NCBI GenBank assembly: GCA_963665295.1
Contig: OY762209.1
Span: forward strand, 2,912,001-2,976,000
Origin: Syntrophorhabdaceae bacterium
Lineage (GTDB): Bacteria; Desulfobacterota; Syntrophorhabdia; Syntrophorhabdales; Syntrophorhabdaceae
Direction: 5' to 3'
Length of the DNA stretch: 64,000 nucleotides
Shown: positions 2,876-49,960 of the stretch, piece after piece
Layout: every line of letters starts with the position of its first letter
How positions within the stretch are numbered: position 1 is the first letter of the stretch
The notes under the pieces: model-generated
The model's database searches: none
What the model was told of the DNA's origin: nothing
The model's input: the letters and a program-made list of their open reading frames with translations, nothing else
Made by a program: the position numbers and the translations under genes

Positions 2876-3694
2876 ATGATCATCAAATCTCATGAACGGC
2901 AGCCGGGCGCAATGAGCCGCTTGTTTTGGGAGGATAAGGCCGCCGGGTACACCCTTCCTTTTGAGACAAGAACATTTTCACGGACATCGCGTATCCTCGA
3001 CTATATTGCCGATAACGGCATCCTCATCACCGGGGCAAGGCTCCTTGATGTAGGCTGCGGAACCGGTGCCTTTGCTCTTCCCTTTGCTCAGCGAGGGGCT
3101 TCGGTTACGGCCCTTGATATCTCAGCCAATATGTTGGAACGCCTTGCTGCAGAGGCTGAGCGTCTGCACGTTGGTCCGGTGAGGCCCATACGTATTTCAT
3201 GGAAAGCAATCGACACGAGGGAGACCGGTCTGGAGGAGGCCTTTGACATTGTGGTTTCGGCGTTCTCGGCAGCAGTAAACACGGAGGAAGATCTATTGGC
3301 AATGGAGCGATGCTCGACGAAATGGTGTGTCTCCATTGCTTCAGGCAAAATACGCCGCACCGCCCTCTGCGAGAAGATATTAGCCGATTGCGGCGCACCG
3401 TCCGACCCGAACCCCGACACGCGCAAAATCAGGAGAAAGCTGACAAAGATGGGGAGAACCTTCCGTTTCTGGTCCTTCACCGAAACAGTAGACGAGGAGA
3501 GAAATCCGAAACAGATTGCCGAGCAGGTCGTCAACCGCCTGGAAGCGGCAGGAAAAGAGTTCGACCGGGATTCAATCATCGCCAGGGTACTGGAACTGTG
3601 TGCGATTTATGGAGGAGAACGAAAGACCATCGAGTGTCATGGGAGCATTGCTGTCGGCGTACTCATGTGGAGGGTTGATGGAAGGCAAGCCTAG
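2876..3694 (+). CDS. Class I SAM-dependent methyltransferase
   Basis: LLDVGCGTG motif I, VTALDISANML, FDIVVS; RBS GAGGAG. Confidence 0.9.
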   Translation: MIIKSHERQPGAMSRLFWEDKAAGYTLPFETRTFSRTSRILDYIADNGILITGARLLDVGCGTGAFALPFAQRGASVTALDISANMLERLAAEAERLHVGPVRPIRISWKAIDTRETGLEEAFDIVVSAFSAAVNTEEDLLAMERCSTKWCVSIASGKIRRTALCEKILADCGAPSDPNPDTRKIRRKLTKMGRTFRFWSFTETVDEERNPKQIAEQVVNRLEAAGKEFDRDSIIARVLELCAIYGGERKTIECHGSIAVGVLMWRVDGRQA

Positions 3695-43294: not shown

Positions 43295-44254
43295 ATGGGG
43301 ACAAGCCAGTCAAATATACTTCTTGAATCAGGCACCAACGAAGTTGAAATTCTGGAACTATTCATTGAGGAAGAAGGGTACAAGGGCTACTACGGGGTAA
43401 ACGTGGCAAAAGTCCTTGAAATAATACCTTTGCCTTCCAAGATTATGAGGCCCCCACATCTCAAGGGGTCCTTTGCATACGGAATGTTCAACCACCGGGA
43501 CAAGATCATTGCCCTTTTCGACCTCGGCACATGGCTGGGAAGGACCAGGATAGAAAATGCGCCGCCCAAGGTGTTGATCACGGAATTCAACAATGTGACG
43601 AACGCCTTCCTTGTCTCAGGGGTTACGAGAATCCACCGGGTCACCTGGGGCGATATTAAGCCGCTGGACGGCTACATGGACGGTCTCAGCGATACCATCA
43701 CGAGTGTCATAGAATTGGAGGATAAACTTGTCTTCCTTCTTGACCTCGAAAAGGCAGTGGCCGACCTGAACCCTGATCTCGCTATCTCGGCGCCTCTTCA
43801 GACCGTCGCACAGTCGGAGATCTTTCGTGACGCGCCTATCAGGATTCTACATGCCGACGACTCCTCGGTGATCCGCATTACGGTGAAGAGGAAATTGGAA
43901 GAAAACAAGATATTTTCGGTCAGGTCCGCAGGAAACGGTGACGAAGCCTGGGAATTCCTCGTTGATGCGAAGAATAAGGCCCGCGAAAACGGGACGAAGC
44001 TTACCGAAGCAGTTGAGGTGGTTCTGAGCGACATCGAAATGCCCGGCATGGACGGGTACCATCTCTGCAAACGGATCAAAGAGGACCCGGAATTAAAGTC
44101 GATTCCCGTGGTGCTATTCTCCTCGCTCATCACGGAAAAGTTGTTCCATAAAGGAGAGGCAGTAGGCGCCGACGGCCAGTTCGCGAAGCCCGACATGCAA
44201 TTGATGCTGTTTATTCAAGAGTTTGTGGAAAGAAGAAGGCAGGCCGGCTCATAG
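43295..44254 (+). CDS. cheV: Chemotaxis protein CheV (CheW + receiver)
   Basis: ILLESGTNEVEILE, YGVNVAKV, SDIEMPGMDG, FSSLI. Confidence 0.92.
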   Translation: MGTSQSNILLESGTNEVEILELFIEEEGYKGYYGVNVAKVLEIIPLPSKIMRPPHLKGSFAYGMFNHRDKIIALFDLGTWLGRTRIENAPPKVLITEFNNVTNAFLVSGVTRIHRVTWGDIKPLDGYMDGLSDTITSVIELEDKLVFLLDLEKAVADLNPDLAISAPLQTVAQSEIFRDAPIRILHADDSSVIRITVKRKLEENKIFSVRSAGNGDEAWEFLVDAKNKARENGTKLTEAVEVVLSDIEMPGMDGYHLCKRIKEDPELKSIPVVLFSSLITEKLFHKGEAVGADGQFAKPDMQLMLFIQEFVERRRQAGS

Positions 44255-44353
44255 AGACCGGCCACGGCCGTTAAGGTTTGAAATCAAATACCCGCACAGG
44301 TAATCCCCGTGCGGGTATTTGATTTCCCCTCTCAGGAAATGACGGCGGACGGG

Positions 44354-44812
44354 CTATTTCCAGAAACCGCAGCCGATGAACACGTTTTCCCCTTCCACTC
44401 GCTGCACCCAGGCCATCTTCTGCTGCACTTTTTTGGTGGCAGGGTTGGTCCACATATAACTGACCCAACCGCTCCCCTTGGTCTTAGCCACTTCCATTTG
44501 TTCCTTTACGAAGAATTTTCCCGAGGCATCTTTTATGTCCAGGAAGTTCATACCCACAATCTTGGTGTTTCCTCCGTTTGCGATCAGGATTCCGTTGAAG
44601 TCGTGGGCGTGAATGTACAAGTCGCCCTTTACGAACTGGCCCTTGGGGTTATTGAATTCCGCGATGGCCTTGTCCTTTCCGTTCGCCTTCCAGAAGACCA
44701 CCGCCTTTTCCACCATGGCCTTTGCGTCGCCCTCGGTCGCTGCCTGAGCAACCAGCACCATACCTGCCATCACCATCAGCGCCACTACCATCCCACATAC
44801 GAATCGTCTCAT
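44354..44812 (-). CDS. Stand-alone exported single-Cache (sCache_2) protein
   Basis: Signal peptide, GDLYI, GSGWVSYMWTNP, IGCG. Confidence 0.85.
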   Translation of the reverse strand: MRRFVCGMVVALMVMAGMVLVAQAATEGDAKAMVEKAVVFWKANGKDKAIAEFNNPKGQFVKGDLYIHAHDFNGILIANGGNTKIVGMNFLDIKDASGKFFVKEQMEVAKTKGSGWVSYMWTNPATKKVQQKMAWVQRVEGENVFIGCGFWK

Positions 44813-45025
44813 GCAAACCTCCCTTTCATTGCGGGTTGCCCCGAAAATAGTTGTACCTATAACTGTCGGGTGATGCGGTCTGTTTCTTAAGCCTCGTGCA
44901 TCTTTTTCCTGAAACTGCGAGAAAGGGTTTGACAAACCCGCCGCGAGGAAGAACAATATATACCACAAGCGTCTGCCGCAGGGGGAACTGCGGAACGCAG
45001 CAACTGTTACCAAGGAGGTGATGGG

Positions 45026-45412
45026 TTGAAGGCCGTAGTCAAAACACTTTTGGTATCCCTGTGTCTCTGGCTTTCGCTTTCCGCATGTCATACCGTCGTG
45101 CAGAAGCTCTCTTATACCCAGGGGGACCGTGGATGTGAGGTTGAGGTGTTTGAAAAAGGAGCGGAAGGGAATTGCCTCACGAAAGACCGGGCTCCGGTCT
45201 CATTTTCCCTATGGTCCACGCGCATACCCAATTACTCGATCATATTTCAAGGACTGAACAGTAATGACCCGGATTTCACCCCTATGTACGGGTTCGTCGT
45301 CAACGATGTGGAGCAGGAGCCCAGCGATGATCTCTGGAAAAGGCTGTTACAGGACCCCCAAATGCTGTGCAACCGGGCATGCGGACCTGCCGACTGGCTT
45401 CTCGTGAGATAG
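45026..45412 (+). CDS. Hypothetical lipoprotein
   Basis: RBS AAGGAGG, TTG start, lipobox LSAC. Confidence 0.6.
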   Translation: MKAVVKTLLVSLCLWLSLSACHTVVQKLSYTQGDRGCEVEVFEKGAEGNCLTKDRAPVSFSLWSTRIPNYSIIFQGLNSNDPDFTPMYGFVVNDVEQEPSDDLWKRLLQDPQMLCNRACGPADWLLVR

Positions 45413-45424
45413 CCATCGCATGCG

Positions 45425-45579
45425 GTTCCGGTTCATGCCCCGTGCGGGAGCGGCTTCTTTCTTCGTGTCTCTCGTGTTCCCGTTGACGTTTCAACCCACG
45501 CCCCCGCAGGGCAGCAAAAACTTACGCTCAATATTAGTAGATTATCAGGAGTTTCAACCCACGCCCCTTTGAGGGCGGC
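45425..45579 (-). CRISPR. Degenerate type I-C mini-array: 3 repeats, 2 spacers
   Basis: Minus-strand repeats GCCGCCCTCAAAGGGGCGTGGGTTGAAAC (45579-45551), GCTGCCCTGCGGGGGCGTGGGTTGAAAC (45515-45488), GCCGCTCCCGCACGGGGCATGAACCGGAAC (45454-45425); 3' ends exactly 63 bp apart; spacers 35 and 33 nt. Confidence 0.85.
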
Positions 45580-46497
45580 ACCATCATTTATTGCTTACGG
45601 AAACCAGGCCCGAAGGCCGGTTCCGATCGGTTCCTCCGTCGGTCTTTCTCCGGCGCTCAGATCTTTTCCTCCATGGTCACTCCATTCGGCAGCCTGTCCG
45701 TATCGACTGCAATCACGTAGTCGGTGAAGGCGCGGGCAGGTTCGGAATCGTCCCTGCGACGACCCACACGAACAAGGTCAAACAGCTTATGGGCGGGAGC
45801 GTTGCCCAAAGCGGAATCATGCTTGAATACCATGAGCCTTCGGGCATTCATCTTTCCTCTTGAGGCGGAATGATCATGGTCGAACATATTTACCAGGGAG
45901 TCCCAGAATAACTGGAGGTCTTCCCCAGAGAAACCTGTCTGCTGAGCGAGATGAGCGGATACGTAGCCTTCGGCGCGATAGAGCGCGTAGGGAACGATGT
46001 GTTTCCTGCCCATGGTGCGGTTATCACCGCCCTGCTGCTCCGCTTCCTTCTCGGTAGCCACGGCCATCCTTGTAATGCTTACCTCCGTGGGAACAATGGC
46101 CTCGATGCTGCGGGCAAAACAGAGTTGCACGGGACCCCGGACCTGCCCACAGTTTATTTCGAGGGCCATGACCGCCCCAAAGGTGCGCACGTCGTAGAAA
46201 TTGGCGCACATCCAGGCCCGGGCCTTCTCCACTTCATCCGCCGTGCCTTTGCGTCCTTTTCCGCTCACCCTGTCTTCGACTCCCACGGCTTGATGGGCGC
46301 GCCTGTGGGTCTGGTTGAGAATGGCCTTTTCCCGTACATAGATTTCATAGGGAGACTGATTGCTCTTCGCGATTTCAACGAAGTTCCGGACCTTCCTCTT
46401 GAGGCAGACGTCGGTTACCAGGCCGAAACTTGTCTCCGGGTCGATGCGGGGCATGTTTCCCGCATCGGGGTCTCCGTTGGGGTTTCCGTTTTCCACA

Positions 46498-48941
<2,444 letters not shown>

Positions 48942-49114
48942 TCACCAAAATTAGTCTGCCCCATGCGAGTAAAAAGCCAACCCACAGTCACGTAACCGGG
49001 AGGATGAGCCGCCGTATTGTAATTGTTGGCGCGTTAAGCTTTAGAGCAACATGGCGGGTCTCGAGCGGAGCTTCCACGCGGGTTCGTTTTTCACCGTTGG
49101 TGATTTGCACACAA

Positions 49115-49143
49115 ATTTTAAGGCATGGATGAAGAAAAATCAA
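49115..49143 (-). promoter_or_regulatory. Putative sigma70 promoter of the cas5c-8c-7c operon
   Basis: TTGATT-N17-TAAAAT on the minus strand in an AT-rich intergenic tract. Confidence 0.55.
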
Positions 49144-49399
49144 GCCCTATGATTATTAAAACGGTAAATACGGCATTATAAGGAATTCTTTAATACCATA
49201 ATAGCACTAAAAAGAGTATTACGGTAGAGAAATGGCATGGATATGGAGCACAGGACATCAACACGGTCAACCTCGCAGATGCAACAAAATATTATCATTC
49301 GTGATTTTCAGTAAGGACCGTGGTACCGCGAGGGCGGACCCGGTGCCGCGGGGGGAAGACGATGCCGGGAATAGGGGACGGAGACTGCCTCAGGGTGGG

Positions 49400-49960
49400 T
49401 TAAAGGCCCAATTGTCCGCCTATTTCAGTCATGGCCTTCAAAGAGATGGACAGGAATTCCTCAAGAGGAATGCCGATTGATTCACACTCCCTGATAATGT
49501 CGCGGTTAACGGAAGCGGCAAAGGCCTTTTCTTTCATCCGCTTGGTCAGTGACTTTACCTTTACGCTCGCGAGTTTTTTGTCGGGATAGACCATGGCGGT
49601 AGCCGTTATGAGTCCCGTCACGGTTTCGCCCGCGGCGAGGGCATGCTGCAGTTCCGTTTCTCTCTTCTTGTTTCGGACTACTTCGTTGTGCATCACTATG
49701 GCTTCGACGATTTCGGGGTCGAGGTCGGTTTCCTTGAGAATACGCTCCGTCTCAAGCCCATGGACCGCGAGATCGCCTTCCACGATCTCTATATCGAGGT
49801 CGTGAAGAAGGCCGGCCATGGCCCATTTATCCTCATCGGCCCCCAACCTTCGGGCCAGGGCTTTCATTACCGCTTCGGCGGCATAACAATGATTGAGCAT
49901 CCTCTCGTTTTTGACATGGGCGTCCAGTAACCGGACCGCCTGCTCTCTTGTAAAGGACAT
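49400..49960 (-). CDS. HDIG/HD-domain metal-dependent hydrolase
   Basis: NH, GLLHDLD, HG, HN, KEKAFAASVNR. Confidence 0.88.
   Translation of the reverse strand: MSFTREQAVRLLDAHVKNERMLNHCYAAEAVMKALARRLGADEDKWAMAGLLHDLDIEIVEGDLAVHGLETERILKETDLDPEIVEAIVMHNEVVRNKKRETELQHALAAGETVTGLITATAMVYPDKKLASVKVKSLTKRMKEKAFAASVNRDIIRECESIGIPLEEFLSISLKAMTEIGGQLGL

Follow-up and report, generated by a model that had tools for sequence, protein, structure and literature searches.

An orphan type I-C Cascade with its own two-guide mini-array and a partial guide match to a distant bamB-like operon in a Syntrophorhabdaceae bacterium

What could a CRISPR effector be doing in a genome when neither the nuclease nor the adaptation genes of its kind lie beside it? 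We address this question for a locus of a Syntrophorhabdaceae bacterium (assembly GCA_963665295.1, contig OY762209.1, positions 2,912,001 to 2,976,000 of the forward strand); this whole stretch of 64,000 nt is referred to as the window, and positions without a prefix are counted within it. The locus is an orphan type I-C effector module, consisting of cas5c, cas8c with an internal cas11c start, and cas7, together with its own mini-array of two guides. The first guide matches, next to a correct protospacer-adjacent motif (PAM), a site in a bamB-like operon elsewhere on the chromosome. The explanation that we favour, with a probability of about 0.48, is that the module may be a hard-wired, non-cutting Cascade that binds this operon and was probably born of a self-acquired spacer.

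Is the array a genuine one? Read on the minus strand, it has the following parts.

45582-45425, minus strand: mini-array of three type I-C repeat units (R1 to R3), with unit ends at 45551, 45488 and 45425 and a period of 63
45551..45582, minus strand: R1, GGTGCCGCCCTCAAAGGGGCGTGGGTTGAAAC, in a 32-nt frame, the effective repeat being 45551-45579 (29 nt; sequence reading and RNAfold)
45516..45550, minus strand: spacer 1, 35 nt (genome mismatch scan)
45488..45515, minus strand: R2, TTTTGCTGCCCTGCGGGGGCGTGGGTTGAAAC, effective length 28 nt (sequence reading and RNAfold)
45455..45487, minus strand: spacer 2, 33 nt (genome, viral, phage and plasmid searches)
45425..45454, minus strand: R3, the terminal repeat, AAGCCGCTCCCGCACGGGGCATGAACCGGAAC, 30 nt (sequence reading and RNAfold)
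45583..45656, minus strand: the 75-nt gap from the cas7 stop to R1, with an imperfect hairpin, AACCGGCC-TTCG-GGCCTGGTT

The first-pass annotation of this stretch had described three repeats that are unlike each other and yet each keep a hairpin, with a period of 63 bp and an 11-nt tail that is degenerate only in the last repeat, and all of this was found. R1 has the stem CGCCCT/GGGGCG, the loop CAAA and the handle TGGGTTGAAAC, placing the predicted 5′ end of CRISPR RNA (crRNA) 1 at 45561. R2 combines the 5′ arm GCTGCCCT and the loop GCG with the same 17-nt 3′ part as R1, handle included, and the 5′ end of crRNA 2 is predicted at 45498. R3 has the stem GCTCC/GGGGC, a loop, CGCAC, that is also the loop of the genome's canonical type I-C repeat, and the decayed tail TGAACCGGAAC. 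RNAfold returned CGCCCU/GGGGCG for R1 and GCUCC/GGGGC for R3 exactly as named; for R2 the minimum-energy fold is in another register, and UGCCCU/GGGGCG is possible. The 5′ arms of R1 (GCCGCCCT) and R2 align given a 1-nt loop indel, and the C-to-T change between them keeps a G-U pair. The loops of R1 and R2 differ, while the 3′ arm of the stem and the handle show 0 differences in 17 positions.

A repeat search gave a single 17-nt family with two copies (45488-45504 and 45551-45567), 100% identical and spaced by 63. This 17-mer is identical at 16 of 17 positions to the 3′ part of the canonical repeat of the genome and is equally near the consensus of the relatives' arrays (GTCGCCCCCCGCGCGGGGGCGTGGATTGAAAC), with the same single-base difference, A to G; R3 has CGCACGGGG in common with the canonical repeat. 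The repeats are homologous to the type I-C repeat in both the hairpin and the 3′ end (...GTGGATTGAAAC), and spacers of 35 and 33 nt between effective repeats of 29, 28 and 30 nt represent normal type I-C geometry, the spacers of the canonical array being 33-36 nt long. The units are credible as CRISPR repeats because of this homology and their position 75 nt after a type I-C cas7, not because of hairpin energy, and we regard all three as confirmed type I-C CRISPR repeats. No further handle-like site exists in the window: six matches at up to two mismatches were found against 9.5 expected, and the only exact ones are those in R1 and R2. Tandem Repeats Finder reported nothing at the array even at score 30, in keeping with the expectation of the first-pass annotation that repeat finders would miss it. 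Its caveat that terminal repeats commonly decay in ordinary arrays is also borne out, as the canonical array of this genome ends in the same way.

The genes in front of the array, with a candidate promoter, are as follows.

48252..48902, minus strand: cas5c, intact, 216 aa, pre-crRNA endonuclease subunit (TIGR01876, 1.2e-57; PF09704, 1.1e-47)
46498..48255, minus strand: cas8c/csd1, intact, 585 aa, large subunit (TIGR01863, 3.4e-168, profile positions 1-586 of 588)
46498..46908, minus strand: likely internal cas11c frame of 136 aa, nested at the 3′ end of cas8c (codon 450 is an in-frame ATG that follows GAGGAGG)
45657..46580, minus strand: cas7/csd2, intact, open reading frame (ORF) of 307 aa (TIGR02589, 4.3e-124, profile match from residue 20)
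49115..49143, minus strand: candidate operon promoter, TTGATT-17-TAAAAT, within the 500-nt gap before cas5c (promoter-like by consensus match only; five such sites found, 3.3 expected in shuffles)

Type I-C systems make Cas11 from a start inside cas8c, and the window's cas8c has kept a likely start of this kind, an ATG behind a Shine-Dalgarno site. To judge the state of the genes, near-invariant columns were counted in relatives at least 55% identical, aligned in one piece over at least 90% of the query and free of stop codons, with duplicates removed. The window deviates at 1 of 60 such columns in Cas5c, 3 of 124 in Cas8c and 0 of 77 in Cas7, so that 257 of 261 are kept overall; these deviations are inside the range of relatives with complete systems, and for Cas8c 8 of 20 relatives have as many or more. 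In a quick Cas7 tree of 107 rows, the end branch of the window is 0.25 long, the same as that of the nearest row (L076, a complete system; sister support 88, weak), with a median of 0.13. The decaying cas genes expected of a relic were therefore not found: the frames are open, near-invariant residues are kept and the end branch is no faster than that of L076. The Cascade genes are intact and look constrained.

Is the absence of cas3 real, and is it unusual? A genome-wide family search matched cas3 and cas1 in just two places, 1.168-1.176 Mb and 2.436-2.444 Mb, the cas3_core matches above the family cut-off being at 1.175 Mb and 2.436 Mb, and tblastn of the relatives' Cas3, Cas4, Cas1 and Cas2 against the window gave nothing better than E = 0.07 and no remnant upstream of cas5c. 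There is neither a cas3 adjoining cas5c-cas8c-cas7 nor a leader with cas4-cas1-cas2 adjoining the array, and the 75-nt gap upstream of R1 has no similarity to the leader of the canonical array. A 186-aa HD-domain gene at 49400-49960 was considered as a cas3 remnant and rejected: it has only an HDIG-type match, no match in the relatives' loci, and E = 0.68 and 3.0 at best against the relatives' Cas3. This upstream HD-domain gene and a TPR gene are housekeeping neighbours that recur in G051, a genome of the same genus without a cas locus of this kind.

As the closest relatives, 30 loci with a Cas8c 36-71% identical were fetched from genome_contigs, and flanking ORFs were obtained from 28. Cas3 domains lie directly upstream of cas5c in 27 of these 28 loci and Cas1 downstream in 27, the exceptions being L022, whose upstream sequence is just 900 nt long, and L028, in which RAMP genes follow. 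In a sample of the phylum (401 genomes, 84 with a Csd2 match, 60 of those loci examined), cas3 is present in 55 loci, and of the five that remain all but one have under 900 nt upstream; when more than 2 kb is available, cas3 is found in 55 of 56 loci, the exception being L181 with 3,072 nt. The absence of cas3 at the window locus is exceptional among its relatives.

What, then, does the array aim at? Bases 1-21 of spacer 1 match C1:5394340-5394320 (minus strand) exactly, and 24 of the first 25 bases match in the genome mismatch scan. The target lies directly 3′ of TTC, with the match starting at spacer base 1, as it would for a real protospacer. In the PAM-distal 14 nt, 6 positions match and 8 differ, against 0 of 21 differing PAM-proximally. 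By our arithmetic the expected number of exact 21-mer matches in this genome is about 2.5e-6, and the target is the only genome site with 15 of 15 informative seed positions and the PAM. Guide 1 thus combines PAM-proximal complementarity to a genomic target (21/21, then 6/14) with the correct PAM; as a copy of chromosomal, non-mobile sequence, spacer 1 is a partial one (21 nt plus PAM). A foreign source for the whole of spacer 1 was rejected, there being no match in viral contigs; the genome holds no second copy of the 3′ tail of the spacer, only 11- and 12-mers of the kind that chance produces.

The target occupies nt 165-185 (PAM, nt 162-164) of a gene for a 653-aa protein of the aldehyde:ferredoxin-oxidoreductase family, 2.4 Mb from the array. 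This gene opens an operon that continues with a 4Fe-4S (ferredoxin-like) protein, HdrD-like, FdhD, HdrA-like and MvhD-like genes, a layout that we take to be that of a bamB-type class II benzoyl-CoA reductase cluster (bamBCDE-like). Guide 1 has the sense of the coding strand and is hence expected to pair with the template strand. A paralogous operon lies at 4.71 Mb (protein 69% identical), and its corresponding site matches at 22 of 31 positions and lacks the PAM. In six further genomes of the family, 1-3 of the 24 positions of the orthologous target site are changed, and the match is exact only in the own genome. Regulation of the module's own cas operon was considered and rejected, as neither spacer has a PAM-flanked seed match in window 44200-49500. 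Two points go beyond the first-pass annotation, namely the absence of cas3 and adaptation genes and the fact that guide 1 is self-aimed, which would also fit an autoimmunity relic. The annotation had proposed selection on two regulatory guides; this gains support for guide 1 from its PAM-flanked partial target in the genome, but no target was found for guide 2, and the support does not extend to a second maintained guide. Upstream of the target gene (C1 about 5394505-5394940) we also noted three tandem promoter/operator-like elements, each with a TTGACA-type box, TATAGT and the palindrome GTGAATAnATTCAC, and one similar copy lies upstream of the paralogue, near C1:4712080.

Taking the anatomy and the target together, a non-cutting Cascade aimed at the bamB-like operon could work as follows. 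The mini-array would probably be transcribed by read-through from cas7. Cas5c would cut 3′ of each hairpin to yield crRNAs of about 63 nt that carry the 11-nt handle UGGGUUGAAAC at the 5′ end and a hairpin at the 3′ end. Such processing, which the first-pass annotation had also invoked, agrees with the available text of a type I-C preprint, which describes cutting on the 3′ side of the hairpin, handles of 11 nt (5′) and 21 nt (3′), and TTC as the PAM (bioRxiv 10.1101/2024.12.27.630466). Cascade loaded with guide 1 would recognise the TTC at nt 162-164 of the first gene of the operon, and the first 21 nt of the guide (24 of 25) would pair with the template strand. Since the module lacks Cas3 and the distal part of the guide would stay unpaired, the complex may bind without cutting and act as a brake of the CRISPR-interference (CRISPRi) type on one of the two paralogous operons. 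Cascade without Cas3 silences genes, and about 5-fold silencing from template-strand sites within an ORF is reported in the accessible part of Rath et al. (PMC4288158); a brake at +165 is plausible and would likely be modest. As to history, spacer 1 may have been taken from the own chromosome as the last, leader-proximal spacer, the resulting autoimmunity may have been resolved by losing cas3, cas4, cas1, cas2 and the leader, and the binding-only remainder would then have been retained.

Are there precedents for such an RNA? The same preprint, as far as its available text goes, reports type I-C crRNA-like RNAs (crlRNAs; CRISIS) that repress linked defence genes by limited pairing (10.1101/2024.12.27.630466). 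The crlRNAs and the window are alike in subtype, in a degenerate repeat pair around the guide, in the 11-nt 5′ handle, the hairpin 3′ handle and the TTC PAM, and in limited PAM-proximal pairing, with which Cascade binds without cutting in the crlRNA case and would do so in the window. The described crlRNAs, however, lie between cas3 and cas5c of complete systems and target the promoter of a gene of the same locus, whereas the window has no cas3 or adaptation genes, its array stands behind cas7 and its target is remote, lying in coding sequence of a catabolic operon. CreR/CreA and regulatory mini-arrays of types I-B, I-E, I-F, I-D and V-A (10.1101/2023.03.10.532045; Shmakov et al., 10.1101/2023.03.03.530964), in the parts of these sources available, likewise are degenerate mini-CRISPRs with partial seed-side complementarity by a PAM, and Cas3 is dispensable for their effect; they auto-repress cas genes or a linked toxin, while the window guides have no match to their own promoter region. 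As in such regulatory RNAs, the degenerate repeats of the window keep the processing hairpin and 5′ handle, the hairpin energies alone not being significant. Known Cas3-less Cascades are similar in being effectors without nuclease or adaptation genes that presumably only bind DNA. The window differs from them in having no transposon, plasmid or helicase partner, its flanks being housekeeping genes conserved in the genus, in that cas8c and cas5c are separate genes, and in its concrete chromosomal target.

Several observations weigh against a regulatory Cascade. The hairpin energies of the G+C-rich 32-mers are no better than those of shuffles (z = -0.48, -0.42 and +0.45 for R1, R2 and R3; 60, 61 and 135 of 200 shuffles fold as well). 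No sigma-70-like promoter was called in the 75-nt gap, and no array promoter or leader was seen. The target is a coding region, 164 nt from the start codon, rather than a promoter or a site in the same locus. For type I-E, moreover, the accessible part of Luo et al. (PMC4288209) reports repression in transcribed regions only for the non-template strand, the opposite of the strand to which guide 1 pairs. Guide 2 has no target beyond chance in the genome, and searches of viral contigs, phage records and plasmid records gave none either. Searches of genome_contigs, metagenome_contigs and 69 genomes of the family turned up no close relative of the locus. The crRNAs and their DNA binding are predicted from sequence alone, and the same is true of transcription, repression and history. 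Finally, a self-match in the leader-proximal spacer combined with missing cas genes is what autoimmunity and subsequent decay classically leave behind (Stern et al. 2010, cited in the available part of review PMC8616872).

This last point introduces the main rival, in which a second complete type I-C system took up a self spacer and the survivors lost cas3 and the adaptation genes, the stump being inactive. We judge it rather unlikely. In its favour, the self-match with a correct PAM sits at the cas-proximal, youngest spacer position; nothing is left of cas3, cas4, cas1, cas2 or the leader; the array is very small, and each of its three repeats is degenerate; and compared with G051 the surroundings have been rearranged, with an adjoining sensor gene that looks truncated. 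Self-targeting has been linked to degenerate systems in the part of review PMC8616872 available, and the autoimmunity cases cited there (Stern et al. 2010; the hisS spacer of Pelobacter carbinolicus) resemble the window in a self spacer with correct PAM, loss of cas genes, mutated repeats and a host that is a deltaproteobacterial anaerobe. Such remains do occur: L181 (G335:C33, 6391-7180 in locus coordinates) has cas5-cas8c-cas7, a broken cas4, two identical repeats and no cas3, and its single spacer is matched nowhere else in that genome. As a plain relic at a stage of decay, L181 contrasts with the locus of the window, which has no pseudogene remnants and whose repeats have diverged while 3.2 kb of Cascade genes stayed open, with almost all near-invariant residues and the cas11c start kept. 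The window further differs from the autoimmunity cases in that its effector genes look constrained and its mismatches are confined to the PAM-distal third of the spacer, and its G+C content is the same as that of the flanks.

Does the pattern of divergence decide between the two? A repeat is duplicated at adaptation, and R1 and R2 would therefore have started out as identical copies at the entry of spacer 1; the divergence of their loops suggests that the array has aged since then. The argument from age comes down to two repeats and presumes neutral divergence in place, and a single complex mutation could change a loop, which again weakens the case for a maintained regulator. The changes nevertheless avoid the handle, the stem pairing and the 21-nt seed, and by our arithmetic uniform decay has a probability of about 1e-4 of confining the 8 spacer mismatches to the final 14 of the 35 positions; both points speak against an inert relic. 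The sparing of handle, stem pairing and seed fits selection for processing and seed pairing, and the distal mismatches would also fit selection against a full R-loop, which is sensible if Cas3 was or is in the cell.

Does the arrangement recur elsewhere? Among the 80 best Cas7 relatives from metagenomes, three have type I-C mini-arrays of degenerate repeats directly after cas7, and the 513-901 nt of sequence available there contain no cas4. L104 (3233-3451) has four repeats beginning at the stop codon; their stems differ and yet pair (5, 7, 6 and 7 bp), and the handle GTGGATTGAAAC is constant in the first three repeats and decayed in the last. L103 (about 1813-1910) has two repeats, and its only spacer, AT-rich, resembles spacer 3 of L104, the one hint of a guide conserved between loci. 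L087 (about 3195-3295) also has two repeats, the first with the handle GTGGGTTGAAAC, which carries the same A-to-G variant as the window. In the quick tree, L103/L104 (on a shared stem of 0.54), L087 and the window represent at least three separate Cas7 lineages. The contigs of L103, L104 and L087 end in or before cas5, so that the upstream cas3 region is not covered, and this limits what they can contribute to the regulatory case. A stronger version of that case would be a domesticated, nuclease-free Cascade serving as a transcription brake on one bamB-like operon, arisen by an autoimmune accident and refined by erasing PAM-distal pairing while seed, handle and hairpin were kept, with L103/L104 and L087 as further members of the class; we put this forward as tentative and, on balance, doubtful.

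These mini-arrays also bear on the idea that Cas5c-Cas8c-Cas7 have been retained for a guide-independent role, as proposed for DevTRS, with the mini-array as a passenger. According to the available part of PMC8616872, DevT/R/S (Cas8c/Cas7/Cas5) regulate the dev operon of Myxococcus xanthus without a known matching spacer, and the Cascade genes of the window look constrained. The likeness to the role proposed here is that type I-C Cascade subunits would regulate without Cas3; the M. xanthus system, as described there, is complete and has no known guide, whereas the window has an evident guide and target. A passenger array explains neither the recurrence of mini-arrays behind cas7 in L103, L104 and L087 nor the sparing of handle, stem pairing and seed against changed loops and distal spacer, and we consider this idea highly improbable.

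Could another system of the same genome use these guides? A complete type I-C system lies at 1.17 Mb, with a 94-repeat array of the repeat ATCGCCCCTCGCACGGGGGCGTGGATTGAAAC. Its Cas7, Cas8c and Cas5c are 30%, 23% and 27% identical to those of the window and belong to a different lineage; a recent duplication of the canonical system is ruled out by this 23-30% identity. The Cascade of the window might thus be functional and its bamB-like match incidental, with guide 2 directed against mobile elements not yet known, a canonical Cas3 acting in trans, or the RNAs loaded by the canonical Cascade. The presence of a complete system with cas3 whose handle is one base different (A to G) would suit this scenario, as would a spacer 2 without self target, as for an anti-invader spacer, and lost PAM-distal pairing, which would be expected if a cutting-capable Cas3 were still present. 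Spacer 2, however, is unmatched in viral contigs, phage records and plasmid records; cross-recruitment is doubtful at such identity between the Cascades, the relatives' Cas3 being only about 34% identical to the canonical Cas3; and the canonical system tolerates two perfect PAM-flanked self-targets and is therefore presumably silent, defective or inhibited, possibly by an anti-CRISPR. We regard an incidental match as quite unlikely, and the other uses of the complex, even when an incidental match and a guide-independent role are taken jointly, as unlikely.

What would a Cascade bound to the bamB-like operon mean? In the literature searched, we found no account of a type I-C Cascade that lacks Cas3 and has a guide directed at a chromosomal operon far away; the locus joins known ingredients, crRNA-like regulators and Cas3-less Cascades, in a new combination. 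The crRNA-like regulators described so far belong to complete immune systems and act on promoters in or beside their own cas locus, whereas the window guide aims at a distant metabolic operon. If our reading is right, CRISPR effectors can be recruited into ordinary chromosomal gene regulation, and such recruitment can begin with a self-targeting accident, a course often proposed and rarely caught; the pair is a simple and testable one, of one guide and one target, and its host is a strictly anaerobic degrader of aromatic compounds. If the locus is only a relic, it is a clean example of a cell surviving self-targeting.

Some further observations were made on the other CRISPR-Cas loci. At the canonical locus (C1:1168000-1177000), Cas4, Cas1 and Cas2 are 57-78% identical to those of relatives of the window Cascade (L024, L029, L031), and Cas3 shows the lower identity of about 34% given above; adaptation and effector modules seem to have been shuffled between type I-C loci. 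In the canonical array (C1:1161700-1167830), spacers 84 and 85 from the leader are the two self-matches, 34/34 each and each with a TTC PAM. Both targets lie in one ORF (L209 7811-8193, equal to C1:2513777-2514192) of an integrated element with integrase, ParB-like, primase and topoisomerase genes. A third CRISPR-Cas locus (C1:2436220-2444085), which is neither of the two type I-C loci, has a cas3_core match of 209 bits and cas1, in single open frames of 897 and 312 aa. Extra genes occur in the cas operons of the relatives L019-L022, L024, L029, L030, L034, L036 and L037, namely an NYN-domain gene between cas3 and cas5c and Fic, RhuM, Bro-N, nucleotidyltransferase-pair or AbiEii genes between cas7 and cas4/cas1; CRISPR-supervised cargo genes are on record from the same positions.

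In the surroundings of the module, G+C content is flat across the locus, and a genomic island was ruled out, as there is no G+C shift. A 245-aa ORF at 44354-45091 (minus strand) ends just after a Cache sensor domain and has the look of a sensor or chemoreceptor cut short; G051 holds many paralogous matches to its 3′ part and, as noted, shows the surroundings in a different arrangement. A search of sequencing runs for this organism listed none of RNA. The sequencing-run contigs X1 and X3 cover the stretch without differences and may be its source. Run contigs X4 and X5 (window 44300-49700) are short, with loose ends mostly at GATC, which suggests proximity-ligation (Hi-C-like) DNA, not RNA.

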